NCBI GenBank assembly: GCA_050177605.1
Contig: JBFXGX010000005.1
Span: 22,047-86,046, forward strand
Direction of reading: 5' to 3'
From: Candidatus Izemoplasmatales bacterium
Lineage (GTDB): Bacteria > Bacillota_I > Bacilli_A > Izemoplasmatales > Hujiaoplasmataceae
Length of the DNA stretch: 64,000 nt
The notes under the pieces are model-generated. The model made no database searches and was not told where the DNA came from. It saw only the letters and a list, made by a program, of their open reading frames with translations. Position 1 is the stretch's first letter; every line of letters begins with the position of its first letter. Shown here one piece after another: positions 10,889 to 18,859 of this stretch. Position numbers and translations under genes: made by a program.

Positions 10889-11807
10889 GAGTAGAGTCCT
10901 CCGATGATTCTTCAATTAAGTAAATAGGTCGGTTGAGTAGTTGTCTTCTCATTTGATATAGCAAATAAAATATAGCGTATGTAGAAATGCCTAACACAAA
11001 CACGACCACGAATAAATATAGCCCCAAGATAAATTCTGATAGTGACAAAACACTAAAAGCGAACAATAATGCATCGCTGACTAATAAAAGCACACTGGTG
11101 AGTAACACTAAGATAGGTACAATCATCAATATCGTAGAAAATTGATTCATACCATTAAAAGCATATCTTAATAGAGATTTAAAACTCCATGAACTTTTAC
11201 CATTTAGTCTTGGAATAAAATCATATTCCAAACATTTTCTTTTATAGCCGACCCATGAGAATATCCCTTTTACAAAGCGGTAATTATCGTTTAATTTCAA
11301 GAATGCTTCCACAACGACTTTATCGAGCAATTGATAATCTTTTGCGCCATTATCGAGTGGCATATCTGAATGAGCATTATAAATTCTATAAAACCAATTT
11401 GCAAAAAAAGTTCTTAACTTTGGTTCCCCTTTTCTGGTTTTTCCTTTGGTGTAAACAATTTTGTATCCCTCTTCATAATAGGATAACATTTCAGGAATCA
11501 ATGATGGTGGTTGTTGGAGATCGCAATCAATCATAATAACGGCATCACTATCTTTTGATTCCATTAACCCCGCATGCATCGCACTTTCTTTTCCAAAATT
11601 ACGAGAAAAACTAATATATCGGACTTTTTTATCGAGTTCATGTAGTTTTTTCATTTCACCAAGGGTATCATCCTTCGATCCGTCATTTACATACAAAAGT
11701 TCAAACTCATAATTAGGATGATTGATATATTTTGAAACTTCATCATAAAAAGGTCGAACATTTTTCTCTTCATTAAAGGACGGAATGATGATCGTTATTT
11801 TCTTCAT
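10881..11807 (-). CDS. GT2 polyprenyl-phosphate glycosyltransferase (GtrB/CsbB-like)
   Basis: IIPSFNEE, VNDGSKD, SRNFGKE, IDCDLQ, 2 C-terminal TM, RPIYLI. Confidence 0.93.
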   Translation of the reverse strand: MKKITIIIPSFNEEKNVRPFYDEVSKYINHPNYEFELLYVNDGSKDDTLGEMKKLHELDKKVRYISFSRNFGKESAMHAGLMESKDSDAVIMIDCDLQQPPSLIPEMLSYYEEGYKIVYTKGKTRKGEPKLRTFFANWFYRIYNAHSDMPLDNGAKDYQLLDKVVVEAFLKLNDNYRFVKGIFSWVGYKRKCLEYDFIPRLNGKSSWSFKSLLRYAFNGMNQFSTILMIVPILVLLTSVLLLVSDALLFAFSVLSLSEFILGLYLFVVVFVLGISTYAIFYLLYQMRRQLLNRPIYLIEESSEDSTLA

Positions 11808-14800
11808 TTAAACTCAACTCCAACTCTTTCTTTTTCTTATTTTTTTTGATTACAAAACTAGGAACAAAAATAGCTAAATAAACCAAACTACCCGCAAGAG
11901 TACCATAGATTCCATAGGTTAATCCTTTTGGATGGAAAACAAATGTAACATCAATTGATGTTTCGCCATAAGGAATAATAATTCCTAAAAATCCACCACT
12001 TGCTGAGACTGTTTCATATTTTGTTTCAGAAGTAATCGTCCATTCTTCCGAATAAGCAACTGGTATAACAACGATTTGATCTAGCGTGCTTTCACTTATT
12101 CTATCATAATGCAAGGTGATTTTTCCACCTTCAATTGTTAAAGATTGATTATCCGCAAGATTAGAAACCGCATTTTCCTCATAAAAACTTAAATCATCAT
12201 AAGCATACTTCAGACTGAATAAGAACAAATCTGATTGTTCGTACATTTTCGATGTTTTATAGATATACATCTTACTTGGTGTCTCATTGAAATAATAATA
12301 CCCATTAAAACATTCTGTTTCATTGCCAAAGCTATCTTCTACAAAAACACGATCGAAATCAATGGATGAAGATAAACTAAAATATAACATACCTTCTGTG
12401 CTTGTGTAATTAATTCCACTTAAGTCATAAACCAAATATGCAGCACCATCAATTGCGCGCTCCATGCGGTACTCTAATACTTTATTGGAATTAAATAAAG
12501 TTGTTTGTTCGAAATAGATTGCGGTAGGTTCGTTCCAAAACTCACACTTTACTTGATGAGAAGTTCCGCTGGATATGGTACAACTAGATCTACTTCCATC
12601 CTCAAACTCCATAAATACTTCACCATAAGCATCAACAGTTAAATAGTGTGACTTTAGATAAATCGCACCCGTACTAAATCCAATACGAATATCATCGTTA
12701 GAATATTTGAAAAATGTTCTTACAGAAGAATCTACAACACCGGTTGTCGTTACAGCTTCTGCGTCACTTATGGTTTGATAGGACGTAATGCTTCTTAAAT
12801 TAACTTCATTGGACACAGAATCATGCGTTAAGTTAATGTCGGAAAAGTCAAATCTTTCATCCTCGAAATCTAATAGAACATCAACCAACAATAACTTTTG
12901 TCCAGCTATTTTGGTATTAATCGTTGCGAATGTCTTATATTCACTGTAATTTAAATAAGACTCATATACACTAAATGGTTCTGCTTTGACGATTTCATAT
13001 AATTGAAACTGTTCATTTTCGTCAATCAAAGTATAAAAACTATCTGGAAGATAATAATTATAGTCATGGTTCACAAGGATATATTTATAACCAAGGAATT
13101 GATTTAAATAAATCGCCTGAATTTCAAGTTTCGATTTTGATTGATATTCACTTGATCCAAATAACAAGTAACTAATCATATTTGTTTCACTATCTGTCCA
13201 CGAGTGGAAGATTTGAGTATTTGTTGGAAAAGTTGTCATTCGATTGAAATTCAAATCTTCCACATCAAATCGACTTAAATCCACATATACGCGATAAAAC
13301 TCATCATGATCTAAAACTTCATTTAAATATTCATTAATCGAGTGCATTTCATCAAATGTATCAATTTTATTTCGAATCGCAAATGGACCAGAATAAATGT
13401 AAACAATCGCGACTATAAACTCAATCCAAAAAATAGTTTTAATTACTTTGTGTTTTTTTAACCATCCAAACACTAAAATCAAAATCAAAATAAGACCAGC
13501 AACTCCCATCAGGACGGTATCTGCGGTCATTACATCGCGAGAGATATAACTTGTATTGGCCTCAAAAGTTGCGGATAGACTACTTCGAATAATCTCCCAA
13601 TAATCTGGGCTAAGATAATCTGCGGTTGATGTTAGTCTTGTAATATAATAATGCATCACAAATCCGTCAAGCATTAACAAAATAACAATCGGAATGGTTA
13701 AAAACTTCATTTTCACTTTTTCGAAACCATATTCATTAAATACGTGAGCTAAGATCATTGCCTCAACAAGCGGGAAGGTATTAATCCATCTTGTATATGG
13801 TGAATCGGTCGTTCCTGAGAAGACAAAAGAGAAAATAGGTAGAATAATGAGAACTAAACTGAAAGGAATCAAGAACTTGTATACTCTAGCGACTCTTCCC
13901 TTCATAAACCAAATATAATTCATGTAAACAAATCCAACCACAGTAATAAAAAGCGAAATATGTTCTTGCCCGTAATTGTTTTCAAAGCCATAAAATCCAA
14001 TTGGTTTTTGCTCGGTAAATATTTTGGCGATTACTCGCAAATAGATGGTTGGTTGGAATAACTTAAGTTCATACCCGTGAATCGTCACTAACCAATAATC
14101 AAAATATCCTTCTGGTCGATATGTATCTTCGATAATAAACAGAATGGATGGATATAAAATAACAAGTGCCATTAAAACGCCAAGTAACAAAAGAAGTAAG
14201 AAAATCAGTCCATCTAGCACAAACTTAAAGAACTTAAAATTGGGTTCCTTAAAGTATTCCACAATGAACATAATACTGACAAATGCAAGCGCCATGTACC
14301 CTAAATAAAAGTCATAAAATACAAGTGCCATCGCAAAAAGTGGGACAATCCACCTTTTTTTATGGAAAAAGAAATGAACAACGACTAACCCTAAAGGAAG
14401 ATAAAACGCTAAGGATAAAAACACAGGGAACGCCATAAAACTGACAGAGCCTCCACTGATGAAATAAACAATCCCCATCCAAAAAATCGTTCTGTTTTTC
14501 ATTCCTTTTAGGTTGAGATAATAAGCGAAAATCATCACACCGGCAAATATTTTTATGAGTTCTGTAGCGGAATATGCAATTTCAACTGGCATAATGTACG
14601 ATAAAACAAAAGTAATGAATGTAAACACATCAAGAGGAACGTAATAAATGTCGGAAAAGAACGATGCACCTAAGTAATTATTTAAATTAAACCACGATAA
14701 AGATCCATCTTTTACAGAAGTGATAAAATCATTGATAATTGCATAATATTGGATAACATCATCAGAAAAGTTATTGTAAAAACTATTATTGATTAGCATA

Positions 14801-14955
14801 ATTGCTGCATCAATTGTGAAAAGGACTAAGAAGACAAAAACCGCTAAAAAAAGAAATGTTTTCTTTCGACTACTAAAAACATCCTCTATAAACAGCTGGA
14901 ATTTAGTTTGAATGTGTTTTATTCCTTCTTTTAGCTTCAATATCTTAGTTTTCAT
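11773..14955 (-). CDS. YfhO-family GT-C integral membrane glycosyltransferase
   Basis: DDVIQY after TM1, WFNLNNYLGASF, many TM helices, C-terminal IPVAYSEEW...GFLGI...FHPKGL; ATG 14955 has SD GAGGT. Confidence 0.85.
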   Translation of the reverse strand: MKTKILKLKEGIKHIQTKFQLFIEDVFSSRKKTFLFLAVFVFLVLFTIDAAIMLINNSFYNNFSDDVIQYYAIINDFITSVKDGSLSWFNLNNYLGASFFSDIYYVPLDVFTFITFVLSYIMPVEIAYSATELIKIFAGVMIFAYYLNLKGMKNRTIFWMGIVYFISGGSVSFMAFPVFLSLAFYLPLGLVVVHFFFHKKRWIVPLFAMALVFYDFYLGYMALAFVSIMFIVEYFKEPNFKFFKFVLDGLIFLLLLLLGVLMALVILYPSILFIIEDTYRPEGYFDYWLVTIHGYELKLFQPTIYLRVIAKIFTEQKPIGFYGFENNYGQEHISLFITVVGFVYMNYIWFMKGRVARVYKFLIPFSLVLIILPIFSFVFSGTTDSPYTRWINTFPLVEAMILAHVFNEYGFEKVKMKFLTIPIVILLMLDGFVMHYYITRLTSTADYLSPDYWEIIRSSLSATFEANTSYISRDVMTADTVLMGVAGLILILILVFGWLKKHKVIKTIFWIEFIVAIVYIYSGPFAIRNKIDTFDEMHSINEYLNEVLDHDEFYRVYVDLSRFDVEDLNFNRMTTFPTNTQIFHSWTDSETNMISYLLFGSSEYQSKSKLEIQAIYLNQFLGYKYILVNHDYNYYLPDSFYTLIDENEQFQLYEIVKAEPFSVYESYLNYSEYKTFATINTKIAGQKLLLVDVLLDFEDERFDFSDINLTHDSVSNEVNLRSITSYQTISDAEAVTTTGVVDSSVRTFFKYSNDDIRIGFSTGAIYLKSHYLTVDAYGEVFMEFEDGSRSSCTISSGTSHQVKCEFWNEPTAIYFEQTTLFNSNKVLEYRMERAIDGAAYLVYDLSGINYTSTEGMLYFSLSSSIDFDRVFVEDSFGNETECFNGYYYFNETPSKMYIYKTSKMYEQSDLFLFSLKYAYDDLSFYEENAVSNLADNQSLTIEGGKITLHYDRISESTLDQIVVIPVAYSEEWTITSETKYETVSASGGFLGIIIPYGETSIDVTFVFHPKGLTYGIYGTLAGSLVYLAIFVPSFVIKKNKKKKELELSLNEENNDHHSVL

Positions 14956-15110
14956 ATACAACCTCATTAAAATATAATGGCTGTTTTATTATAACATAAA
15001 ACAAGGTACGAAGAGTCGATGATTTTTTAAAAGCCGCAATTTAATAAATGAATGATAACTAATCGCTATATAGACTAAATATCTAAAGCCAGATAACAAA
15101 ATAATCGATT

Positions 15111-15187
15111 ATTCCCTTACGGTAATTTTTTAATATTATTTAATTGAAAACGCCTGAATAGGTAGTATAATATTACCGAGAGGTAAA
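15111..15187 (+). promoter_or_regulatory. Sigma-A promoter of hipB-hipA/hflX with two putative HipB operators
   Basis: TTGAAA 15144-49, TATAAT 15166-71; palindromes TTCCC-TTAC-GGTAA (15112-25) and TTACC-GAGA-GGTAA (15173-86). Confidence 0.7.
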
Positions 15188-15190
15188 AAA

Positions 15191-15394
15191 ATGAACGCAA
15201 AAGAATTTGGAAAGATAATTCAAGATAAAAGAAAACAAATTGGCATAACACAAAAGTATTTAGCGGCTATTTCAAATACAGGAATCCGATTTATAAGCGA
15301 TTTGGAAAACGGGAAGCCGACAGTACAACTTGATAAAGCTTTTATCGTGGCAAAAACATTAAACATTGAAATTAGAATGATTAGTCATGAATAG
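15191..15394 (+). CDS. hipB: HipB-like XRE/Cro HTH antitoxin (y4mF type)
   Basis: RKQIGITQKYLA...GIRFISDLENGKPTVQLDK; overlaps the hipA start. Confidence 0.88.
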   Translation: MNAKEFGKIIQDKRKQIGITQKYLAAISNTGIRFISDLENGKPTVQLDKAFIVAKTLNIEIRMISHE

Positions 15395-17855
15395 AGTGCT
15401 GAAAGTCTATCTATATAACACATATATCGGTGATCTTATTGAAAAAAACGGTAAAAATCTCGATTTTTTGTATTTAGATACTGCAGAATACCCCATTTCT
15501 ATTGCTATGCCAATTCAACGTGAGAAATATCATAACAATATTGTAAAACCATTTTTTGAGAACTTACTGCCTGAAGGAGATTTACTTAAGGCGATTGCGA
15601 GCACATACCGTGTTTCTGTAAACAATCCTTTTTCTTTACTTGAGATGATTGGCGAGGATTGTGCTGGGGCAATCAGTCTATCCAATGAACCTATAACAGA
15701 AAAATTATCCAAACACCTTTCAAAAAACGAATTCGTTCAATTATTAACAATTAATTCAAGTAGTGAATTATATTACCGAAAGGAAATGCGCTTGTCTTTA
15801 GCTGGAGCTCAAAATAAGACAGCAATCATTATTAACGATAATGAATACTATATTCCTAACATTACTCATCCGTCGACACATATCATAAAATATGATAATA
15901 AATTCTACTCGGACATTCTACTAAATGAATATTTTGTGACTTCATTAGCAAAAAGCGTAAAGTTGCCTACATCAGAAATTGAATTAAAACGAGTTGATAA
16001 ACTTGAGTATCTCCAAATCAAAAGATATGATAGATTATGTTATGGTACAACGGTTTCGAGGATCCATCAAGAAGATTTTTGCCAGATACTAAGCATCTTA
16101 TCTTCTAATAAATACCAATCTGAAGGTGGCGTAGGGCTGAATAAGATTGTAAGTGTCATTCGTGAATATTCTAGCGTTTCCGCTAGTGATATAGTTTTAC
16201 TTGCAAAAGTGGTGGTCTTTAATTTGCTTGTTGGCAACTGCGATTATCATGGGAAAAACCTATCGATGCTCCACCTTGATAATAACAAGTATCAATTATC
16301 TCCGTTTTATGACTTAGTTTCAACAGTTGTCTATCCAAATATGTCAAAGAAAATTGCAATGTCTATCAATAAAAAATATTCTATCGATGAAATATCCAAA
16401 AATGACATTATCAAGGAATTTAATTCTTGGGGTATTAAGGGAGAACAAATTTTATCACTGATCATGACTGATTTTAAACAAATTGCAAATCAGGCAAGAC
16501 AATTATCAAAGCAACCTAGTTTTTTTTCTAATACCAATATCGTCGATAAAATAATCGAATTTTTAGAACAACAATATCATAAATTTTCCCAAAAAAGAGA
16601 AGCAGGTGTAACTATGGAAAAAGCAATTTTAATCGGTCTAGATACCGGAACAGACGTGAATTTTAAAGAATCAATCCTGGAATTAGAGAACTTAGCAGAA
16701 GCCTGCAATGTTGACGTTATCGGAAAAACATTTCAAAAAGCAGACTCGCCAACCGCGAATTATTATGTTGGTTCAGGAAAAGTACAAGAAATCAAAGAAT
16801 TAATAGCAACCCTCGACGCTAATCTCGTCATTTTTAATGATGAGCTCAGTCCATCTCATATCCGAAATTTAGAAAAAGCTCTCGATTGTAAAGTGATTGA
16901 CCGCACAATTCTTATTTTAGATATATTCGCTCGTAGAGCAAAAACCAAAGAAGCCATGCTTCAAGTTGAACTTGCACAATCTGAGTACATGCTTCCTCGT
17001 GTCGTTGGAATGTATTCATCTCTTTCAAGACAAAAAAGTGGAACTGGATCAAAAGGACCTGGTGAACAACAATTAGAACTTGATCGTCGGTTGTTAAGGT
17101 CAAGAATAACGAAACTAAAACACGAACTCAAAGATATCGTAGAAATCAGACGAACTCAACGAGAAAAAAGAAAAAAATCTGAAGTGAAGACGGTTGCTTT
17201 GACAGGATACACAAACTCAGGCAAATCAACTTTGATGAATTCTCTACTTAATTTTTCGGTCGTCAATCAAGAAAAATATGTGTTTGAAAAGAACATGTTA
17301 TTCGCAACACTAGAAACACAAACAAGAAACATTACCCTTGAGAACAATCACCAATTCTTAATAACAGATACCGTAGGGTTTATTTCAAAACTGCCTCATC
17401 ATTTGGTAGAAGCATTTAAATCCACCCTAGAAGAAATCAAAGAAGCATCGCTCATCTTACATGTTATCGACACTGCAAACCCTTATTATTTAGATCAGAT
17501 ATCTGTTGTCGAACAAGTTCTTCAAGATATAGGTGTAAAAGATGTACCTATCATTTATGTTTTTAATAAAATAGACTTACTTACTGATATTCCTGTTATA
17601 GAGTACCATCCTTATGTTTTTGTAAGTGCGCTAGAAAAACAGCATTTAAACATTTTAATTGAAGAAATTGAAAAGATTCTTTATTCTTCAAATCATCGTG
17701 TAAAAATGTTATTGCCATTTACAAAAGGTGATATCTACAATCTATTAAAAGAAAATGCAAATATTATTGAAACTAACTACACCGATGAAGGCATTCAAGT
17801 TGATGTTGAATTAAGTGATGTGTACTATCATAAATTTGAAGAATATATTGAATAA
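15387..17855 (+). CDS. In-frame HipA-family Ser/Thr kinase toxin (aa 1-~401) - HflX GTPase (aa 410-822) fusion ORF
   Basis: HipA: PFFENLLPEG, IGEDCAGA, RLSLAGAQNK, THIIK, RYDR, HQEDFCQ, GNCDYHGKN, LSPFYDLVST; no stop before the HflX part. Confidence 0.88.
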   Translation: MNRVLKVYLYNTYIGDLIEKNGKNLDFLYLDTAEYPISIAMPIQREKYHNNIVKPFFENLLPEGDLLKAIASTYRVSVNNPFSLLEMIGEDCAGAISLSNEPITEKLSKHLSKNEFVQLLTINSSSELYYRKEMRLSLAGAQNKTAIIINDNEYYIPNITHPSTHIIKYDNKFYSDILLNEYFVTSLAKSVKLPTSEIELKRVDKLEYLQIKRYDRLCYGTTVSRIHQEDFCQILSILSSNKYQSEGGVGLNKIVSVIREYSSVSASDIVLLAKVVVFNLLVGNCDYHGKNLSMLHLDNNKYQLSPFYDLVSTVVYPNMSKKIAMSINKKYSIDEISKNDIIKEFNSWGIKGEQILSLIMTDFKQIANQARQLSKQPSFFSNTNIVDKIIEFLEQQYHKFSQKREAGVTMEKAILIGLDTGTDVNFKESILELENLAEACNVDVIGKTFQKADSPTANYYVGSGKVQEIKELIATLDANLVIFNDELSPSHIRNLEKALDCKVIDRTILILDIFARRAKTKEAMLQVELAQSEYMLPRVVGMYSSLSRQKSGTGSKGPGEQQLELDRRLLRSRITKLKHELKDIVEIRRTQREKRKKSEVKTVALTGYTNSGKSTLMNSLLNFSVVNQEKYVFEKNMLFATLETQTRNITLENNHQFLITDTVGFISKLPHHLVEAFKSTLEEIKEASLILHVIDTANPYYLDQISVVEQVLQDIGVKDVPIIYVFNKIDLLTDIPVIEYHPYVFVSALEKQHLNILIEEIEKILYSSNHRVKMLLPFTKGDIYNLLKENANIIETNYTDEGIQVDVELSDVYYHKFEEYIE
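16614..17855 (+). CDS. hflX: Ribosome-splitting GTPase HflX (internal start inside the fusion ORF)
   Basis: SD-like GCAGGTG then ATG 16614 (MEKAILIG); DRTILILDIFARRA, GPGEQQLE, G1 GYTNSGKS, G2 LFATLET, G3 DTVG, G4 NKID. Confidence 0.9.
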   Translation: MEKAILIGLDTGTDVNFKESILELENLAEACNVDVIGKTFQKADSPTANYYVGSGKVQEIKELIATLDANLVIFNDELSPSHIRNLEKALDCKVIDRTILILDIFARRAKTKEAMLQVELAQSEYMLPRVVGMYSSLSRQKSGTGSKGPGEQQLELDRRLLRSRITKLKHELKDIVEIRRTQREKRKKSEVKTVALTGYTNSGKSTLMNSLLNFSVVNQEKYVFEKNMLFATLETQTRNITLENNHQFLITDTVGFISKLPHHLVEAFKSTLEEIKEASLILHVIDTANPYYLDQISVVEQVLQDIGVKDVPIIYVFNKIDLLTDIPVIEYHPYVFVSALEKQHLNILIEEIEKILYSSNHRVKMLLPFTKGDIYNLLKENANIIETNYTDEGIQVDVELSDVYYHKFEEYIE

Positions 17856-17886
17856 AAAAAGTTCACAAATTGTGAACTTTTTTATT
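17852..17886. terminator. Bidirectional terminator between hflX and dusB
   Basis: AAAAAAGTTCACA-AAT-TGTGAACTTTTTT. Confidence 0.85.
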
Positions 17887-18859
17887 CATTTAACGCATCA
17901 AAAAAATCATCAATAATCTTTATAACTTCCTCAACTGTTTTTGCGGAAGCTAAAGACGTTTTAGCAGAAGTCGCGTTTTTTAGCCCTTTTAGATACCAAG
18001 GTCCATGGCTTCTCATTTCTAAACAAGCAATCTTTTCACCTTTTAAATCGACAAGATAACTCAGATGTTTTAACATCAGTTCTTTCACTTCTAAAGGCGT
18101 AACCGAACTAATTTCCTCTTTCTTTTCTAAGAATAAAACGAGTTCCTTTATTAGCCAAGGATTCCCTAGCAACCCTCTACCAATCATCACTGCGTCACAA
18201 CCAGTTTCTTCTAACATACGAAGTGCATCTTCTTTTGTTCGAATATCTCCATTCCCAATCACAGGAATTTTTACCGTTTCTTTAATTGCTTTGATAATTG
18301 ACCAATCCGCTTGTCCTGAATACATTTGTGACCTAGTTCTTGGGTGAACAGCGATGGCACTTACACCTGCTTTTTCCAATATCTTCGCAACTTCAATCGC
18401 ATTAATTGAAGAATGGTCCCAACCAGACCGTATCTTAACTGTTACAGGTTTTTTTACAGCGTTTACTACCGCACTCACCAACCTGTAAATATGCTCAGGA
18501 TTTTGAAGTAAAGCTGATCCCGCACCTGCCTTTACCACTTTTTGAACCGGACACCCCATATTGATATCAATGATGTCTGCGCTTGTATATTGATCGATGT
18601 ACTTCGCAGCTTCGACCATACTGTCAATATCACTTCCAAATAATTGAAGTGCTATTGGGTGTTCGTCTTCACCGATTTCAAGCATATCTAATGTTTTATG
18701 ATTATTATGACCTAGTCCCTTATCAGAAACCATTTCAGTATAGATTAGCCCTGTCCCAAAATCTTTCAATATTTGTCTGTAAGCAATATTTGTAACACCT
18801 GCCATTGGCGCCACAACAACTTGATTTTGGATGACTAAATCCTTGATTTTCCATTCCAT
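17882..18859 (-). CDS. dusB: tRNA-dihydrouridine synthase B
   Basis: [43 protein letters not shown]. Confidence 0.95.

Follow-up and report, generated by a model that had tools for sequence, protein, structure and literature searches.

Does a reading frame in which a HipA kinase runs straight into the ribosome-splitting GTPase HflX encode a new bifunctional protein, or have two tightly packed genes simply lost the stop codon between them? This question is raised by an 822-codon open reading frame (ORF), confirmed with translation table 11 at 15387..17855 on the + strand of a 64,000-nt stretch of contig JBFXGX010000005.1 from Candidatus Izemoplasmatales bacterium. The whole stretch analysed is called the window below; its G+C content is 34%, and the genome to which it belongs (G000) comprises 1.94 Mb in 66 contigs and is 89% complete. 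The comparisons described below suggest that the fusion is probably a read-through private to one lineage, brought about by the loss of the hipA stop, and not an established new protein, since the closest relative appears to carry hipA and hflX as separate genes, a further lineage features a spacer that is out of frame, and the hflX loci compared in other relatives are all devoid of hipBA.

The two halves and their junction

The anatomy reported in an earlier note on this DNA (a hipB gene, an intact HipA, a complete HflX following it in frame, and a terminator) was recovered by ORF calling, Pfam, NCBIfam and the analysis of the terminal hairpin. The hipA-coding part (15387..16589, +; residues 1–401) is predicted to specify a complete HipA kinase: in Pfam, it displays Couple_hipA (PF13657) at residues 5–98 with 82.1 bits and HipA_C (PF07804) at residues 136–341 with 157.7 bits (gathering score 30.5), and in NCBIfam it also matches TIGR03071 with 82.9 bits. 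The N-terminal Couple_hipA domain marks this HipA as one of the long type, as opposed to the split HipS/HipT type. The kinase motifs listed in the earlier note were located at residues 135–144 (RLSLAGAQNK), 283–291 (GNCDYHGKN) and 306–309 (PFYD). Structures of Escherichia coli HipA (e.g., 3tpd and 3dnt) align to this half with an E value of 1.9e-38, pairing the three motifs with RISVAGAQEK, GATDGHAKN and PFYD, respectively, so the loop Ser and both Asp are conserved; in the E. coli protein, S150 is the site of autophosphorylation, D309 the catalytic residue and D332 the Mg-binding one.

The kinase part is preceded by hipB (15191..15394, +), encoding a 67-aa helix-turn-helix (HTH) antitoxin and overlapping hipA by 8 nt (ATGAATAG). 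The hipB product matches HTH_3 in Pfam (38.9 bits); against TIGR03070, the model for antitoxins of the HipB type, it scores 64.4 bits, slightly below the cut-off of 71.65. Judged by its domains, its motifs and the hipB upstream, the first half of the ORF is a member of the HipA kinase family. The locus shares with E. coli HipBA the combination of Couple_hipA and HipA_C, the loop Ser, the Asp motifs, the upstream overlapping gene of an HTH antitoxin and an inverted repeat over the promoter. It differs in the length of HipA (401 aa vs. 440 aa), in a HipB of 67 aa and, above all, in the lack of a hipA stop, the kinase here carrying a 413-aa GTPase. The target of E. coli HipA is GltX.

The second half corresponds to hflX (16614..17855, +; 413 aa plus stop), the native start codon of which is kept in frame as M410. 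Pfam reveals GTP-bdg_N (PF13167) at residues 428–515, GTP-bdg_M (PF16360) at 517–595 and MMR_HSR1 (PF01926) at 602–728; the HflX equivalog model TIGR03156 is matched over profile positions 1–350 of 351 with 441.9 bits (cut-off 216.75), and the solved HflX structure 8a57 matches with an E value of 6.1e-113. The earlier claim that the G motifs are intact holds for the three of them that were located, i.e., G1 (GYTNSGKS, 607–614), G3 (DTVGF, 661–665) and G4 (NKID, 727–730). With its full-length match and these motifs, this half resembles known HflX proteins (TIGR03156; structures 8a57 and 5ady). The genome encodes one HflX above the cut-off and one HipA_C protein, both of them in the 822-aa ORF. 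According to the profile matches and the gene neighbourhood, the second half is a complete HflX, the only one of the genome, residing in the orthologous position.

The earlier note had the frame divided into about 400 residues of HipA and 413 of HflX; this division stands, and its boundaries can now be refined. The last residue of HipA is 401 (...YHKFS), a linker (QKREAGVT) takes up residues 402–409, and HflX begins at M410 (ATG at 16614); the peptide stretch spanning the junction is KFSQKREAGVTMEK. When the 10 standalone HipA proteins nearest to it (45–82% identical, 393–405 aa) were aligned with this frame, nine of them stopped in the column of S401, and the tenth, P0129, ran one residue further. 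Codon 402 (16590..16592, +), the site of the stop codon in the standalone relatives, is CAA, a single transition away from TAA, which suggests that the stop was lost by a TAA to CAA change. A frameshift was considered as well: shortening of the A6 run to A5 would put a stop at 16609. Such an origin was rated less likely than a substitution, because the relatives stop exactly after ...KFS and not five residues later.

The linker is encoded by 24 nt (16590..16613, +; CAA AAA AGA GAA GCA GGT GTA ACT), a multiple of three with no in-frame stop. Inside it lies the Shine–Dalgarno sequence of hflX (AGGTG, 16604–16608), 5 nt ahead of the ATG. The equivalent place in G001, a genome of the same genus, reads GGTG, 5 nt and ATG; when 71 genomes of the family were searched, the DNA similarity to the hflX loci of relatives opened at 16604–16615 in 17 of the 18 other matching genomes. 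Since the arrangement of the Shine–Dalgarno sequence and the ATG is matched in G001 and the similarity starts at this very place, the linker is the former intergenic spacer together with the native ribosome-binding site of hflX.

Relatives and the origin of the gene order

The nearest counterparts of the two halves among 5.8 billion proteins are P0121 for HipA, 81% identical, with 403 aa and the C-terminus ...YIKFS, and P0388 for HflX, 96% identical, with 413 aa and the N-terminus MEKAI. For both, the source is given as one Logan contig, with a length of 5,335 nt in either case; this agreement makes it very probable that the two lie side by side on the same contig and were annotated as two genes. 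Because called genes run to a stop codon, the lineage of P0121 would terminate hipA directly behind ...KFS and encode HflX separately. Judging by these identities, hipA has diverged from this nearest lineage several times faster than hflX.

A further lineage is represented by run X4 from another study. It yielded a 639-nt contig, about 84% identical to the window (104 differences), which bridges 16416–17055, i.e., the 3' end of hipA and the adjoining part of hflX. Two nucleotides are left out at 16591, and the gap count of the record is also 2, so this is seemingly the sole indel. As the spacer is 2 nt shorter, hipA and hflX cannot join in frame there. From these contigs, the hipBA–hflX order recurs in at least three lineages, of which a single one shows the fusion. 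The same run also holds short contigs 98–100% identical to the window at 15051–15310 and 17712–17923, off the junction, which indicates that a near-identical strain occurs outside the source study as well.

How the two genes came to lie next to each other can be deduced from 19 hflX loci of relatives. All of them feature a large membrane-protein gene divergent from hflX, 16 of 19 have a dus-like gene downstream, and hipA or hipB is found in none of the 19. The window retains this conserved site, with a gene for a 1,064-aa multi-pass membrane protein (11773–14967, −) divergent from hflX and a convergent dus-like gene (17882..18859, −). The gap between the start codons of the membrane-protein gene and hflX, according to tblastn coordinates, amounts to about 100–190 nt in 17 of the 19 loci. 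At locus L022, the one inspected of the two others (L028 is of the same genus), an apparent gap of 1.1 kb is due to an extended N-terminus of the membrane protein, the real gap being 122 nt. The N-terminus of the membrane protein is much longer in this genus (g4). In the window, the same gap spans 1,646 nt and is occupied by hipBA.

The distribution of hipA agrees with this picture. Its DNA was found in G000 only among the 71 family genomes, and a search of 60 relatives with the whole protein returned 45 near-full-length HflX matches, none of which extends into the HipA half. The HipA-like matches in these relatives reach no more than 32% identity; they lie on different contigs or at a distance of 37 kb or more. 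Since hflX of the relatives adjoins the divergent gene without hipBA and the hipA DNA is confined to G000, hipBA is, by gene order and DNA comparison, an insertion into the short divergent promoter region before hflX, acquired within this genus. When 14968–15100 of the window is compared with G001 (locus L010, 1408–1513), only the stretch beside the membrane-protein gene aligns, e.g., TTATATTATA.CATA. Nothing in the window clearly corresponds to the promoter segment of the G001 hflX, and the hipBA insertion therefore has no exact left edge in this alignment.

The search for the fusion was extended beyond the family. No HipA–HflX protein occurs in the best 120 of 7,815 matches (proteins of 452–1439 aa), all of which are HflX only, the best of them scoring 443 bits and none covering more than 61% of the query. 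In the best 150 of 23,046 matches from 1.84 billion representatives, every best stretch is confined to one half of the query, and seven long or two-stretch matches examined with Pfam display no HipA domain; fusions ranking below the best 120 or the best 150 would escape these searches. Recurrence, the hallmark of an established HipA–HflX family, was observed neither in the 60 relatives nor in the two large protein searches. Within the top matches of both searches, the architecture is unrecorded elsewhere.

Relatives of this HipA in metagenome and genome contigs are only 31–51% identical. HflX is encoded at none of 80 such metagenome loci (61 of which extend at least 600 nt downstream of hipA), and three of 80 genome loci (74 with at least 600 nt downstream) have hflX about 2 kb downstream. 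These three (L150, L153 and L158) all belong to metagenome-assembled genomes of Solirubrobacterales, with both genes on the same strand; L153, the one inspected in detail, was rejected as a hipA–hflX operon, two ORFs of the opposite strand lying between the genes. The proximity of HipA and HflX in Solirubrobacterales is probably a clade-level coincidence.

The titles and abstracts listed for papers naming both HipA and HflX, which deal with persistence in general, contain no HipA–HflX fusion, and the earlier statement that this architecture is undescribed agrees with them as well as with the top matches of the protein searches. The nearest parallel is offered by HipL, described as HipA-family kinases with an additional C-terminal domain, a HIRAN extension, in a survey of the family (PMC8262856, Gerdes et al. 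2021). HipL kinases form a family that recurs, their extension measuring about 200 aa, whereas the HipA–HflX fusion is a single case; the text of the survey mentions neither a GTPase nor a fusion.

Weighing the explanations

An artefact of sequencing or assembly, the real genome having a stop at codon 402 or another length of the A run, is very improbable. One might suspect it from the state of the assembly (66 contigs, 89% complete) and from the A6 run (16591–16596) beside the critical codon, where one A fewer would give ...SQKEKQV and then a stop, but the change from a stop is a substitution and not a matter of homopolymer length alone. Moreover, a 17.6-kb Logan contig from an independent assembly of sample X1 (depth 38) is identical to the window over 14900–18000, the whole 822-aa ORF included. 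A second sample of the same study, X2, contributes two identical contigs covering 14900–16488 and 16587–18000, the latter with both the CAA and the A6 run, and no variant is listed at 16590–16596 for either sample. The fused allele is present in the contigs of two samples, which makes an artefact unlikely; hence, the assembly error at the junction that the earlier note had envisaged finds little room, although this evidence is of contig level only.

If the frame is real, it could encode a bifunctional protein maintained by selection, in which HflX would tether the kinase to the 50S subunit or the 70S ribosome, giving it new local substrates, or would couple dormancy to ribosome splitting and rescue. 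We consider this improbable. In its favour, the two halves are complete, with all the motifs checked, the assemblies of two samples show the fused allele, HflX occurs naturally with an extended N-terminus, e.g., in the clostridial forms of about 596–600 aa, and a functional link between the kinase and HflX activities is conceivable. These forms (see also P0258 and P0358) resemble the fused frame in that the residues are added N-terminally to the HflX core, showing that N-terminal additions to HflX can be tolerated; their extension, however, lacks a Pfam domain and is conserved across species, whereas here a whole kinase is added, privately. No second example of the fusion occurs among the protein matches listed, the nearest lineage has separate genes and the X4 lineage an out-of-frame spacer, and the linker is an eight-residue former ribosome-binding region, not an evolved linker, for which one point mutation suffices. 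The proposals of the earlier note that the fusion carries the kinase to the ribosome or couples dormancy to rescue found no support. Its own view that separate hipA and hflX in the relatives would reduce the fusion to a private stop loss describes most of what was found, i.e., the separate P0121 and P0388, the out-of-frame X4 spacer and the 19 loci without hipBA. Proteins of about 596 aa with HflX domains beginning near residue 200 are numerous in Clostridium and Haloimpatiens, and unrelated C-terminal additions to HflX also occur in two of the seven matches examined with Pfam: a GNAT acetyltransferase in P0277 (720 aa) and a dUTPase in P0330 (733 aa).

Decay or taming of the toxin is an unlikely explanation, too. 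It supposes that the HflX load cripples or destabilizes HipA, so that the stop loss was tolerated or even favoured, lowering the toxicity while hflX was kept. Chromosomal toxin genes often decay, and HipA has diverged from its closest relative much faster than HflX (81% vs. 96% identity), but toxins are expected to evolve faster than housekeeping GTPases anyway. No inactivating change is evident in the kinase, in which the Gly-rich loop Ser and the catalytic and Mg-binding motifs align with those of E. coli HipA, and hipB is intact.

A private stop loss, the reading we consider probable, has to be weighed against several points that run counter to it. Both halves keep every motif checked, and long HflX forms with an N-terminal extension of about 180–210 aa exist among the best-listed protein matches, which leaves a working fused protein a small probability. 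The protein ends and the indel table are the basis for deducing the ancestral TAA and the exact mutation, as the equal figure of 5,335 nt is for the shared contig of P0121 and P0388. Sample X1 is possibly the window's own source; the X2 contigs leave 16489–16586 uncovered, so neither of them bridges hipA to hflX; and the comparison was made at the level of contigs, from which rare variants are lost, rather than raw reads.

Expression of the locus and its meaning

The best promoter-like site within 14900–18000 is TTGAAA-16 nt-TATAAT at 15144..15171 (+), matching the consensus at 11 of 12 positions and situated 20 nt before the ATG of hipB. An imperfect inverted repeat (15109..15189, unstranded) with 27-nt arms at 15109–15135 and 15163–15189, 74% complementary and with the cores TTACGGTAAT and ATTACCG, flanks the −35 element and overlaps the −10 element of this promoter. 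It is a candidate HipB operator; autoregulation by HipB is known from E. coli. On the + strand of 16032–16613, no promoter-like site reached the threshold of the scan, although weak promoters are possible. Unlike the usual HflX gene, hflX of the window lies downstream of hipBA, has no detectable consensus promoter of its own and can be read through from hipA as the second half of a fusion. A terminator-like hairpin with 13 pairs, a loop of 3 and a T run follows at 17855..17883 (+), common to hflX and the convergent dus-like gene.

From these elements, the following course of events can be proposed. A hipBA cassette, equipped with a promoter and a candidate operator, landed, within the genus, in the divergent gap before hflX, bringing the hipA stop to about 14 nt upstream of the native ribosome-binding site of hflX; later, in this population, codon 402 would have turned from a stop to CAA. 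Transcription would now proceed from the hipB promoter to the terminator, presumably yielding a common transcript, on which the translation of hipB and hipA would be coupled via their 8-nt overlap. Ribosomes translating hipA would pass codon 402 and cross the Shine–Dalgarno sequence and the ATG of hflX, giving rise to a HipA–linker–HflX protein of about 94 kDa. Internal initiation on this transcript probably continues to supply free 413-aa HflX, as might be expected from the unchanged Shine–Dalgarno sequence and ATG and from the MEKAI start, which is that of the standalone relatives. Likely, the fusion is neutral or mildly deleterious and has not been selected.

It is tempting to draw a bolder scenario, in which hipBA captured hflX in a clade of at least three lineages, such that the loss of HipB would free the toxin and simultaneously derepress the ribosome-splitting factor required for waking. 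The stop loss would here add a stable HipA–HflX, either holding the kinase on the ribosome or tying the doses of toxin and rescue factor together. We regard this scenario as speculative and improbable.

Overall, the locus illustrates how one point mutation can turn tightly packed neighbouring genes into an apparent new architecture, and it is a warning against reading function into fusions known from a single genome. The fused allele nevertheless represents a natural construct for asking whether tethering to HflX alters the toxicity of HipA or its choice of substrates. Of more lasting interest is the gene order, with hipBA directly before the sole hflX in at least three related lineages. A coupling of hflX to a HipB-controlled promoter would be plausible. 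If hflX is truly transcribed from this promoter, a ribosome-reactivation factor would come under common control with a dormancy toxin, which would bear on the entry to and the exit from persister-like states.

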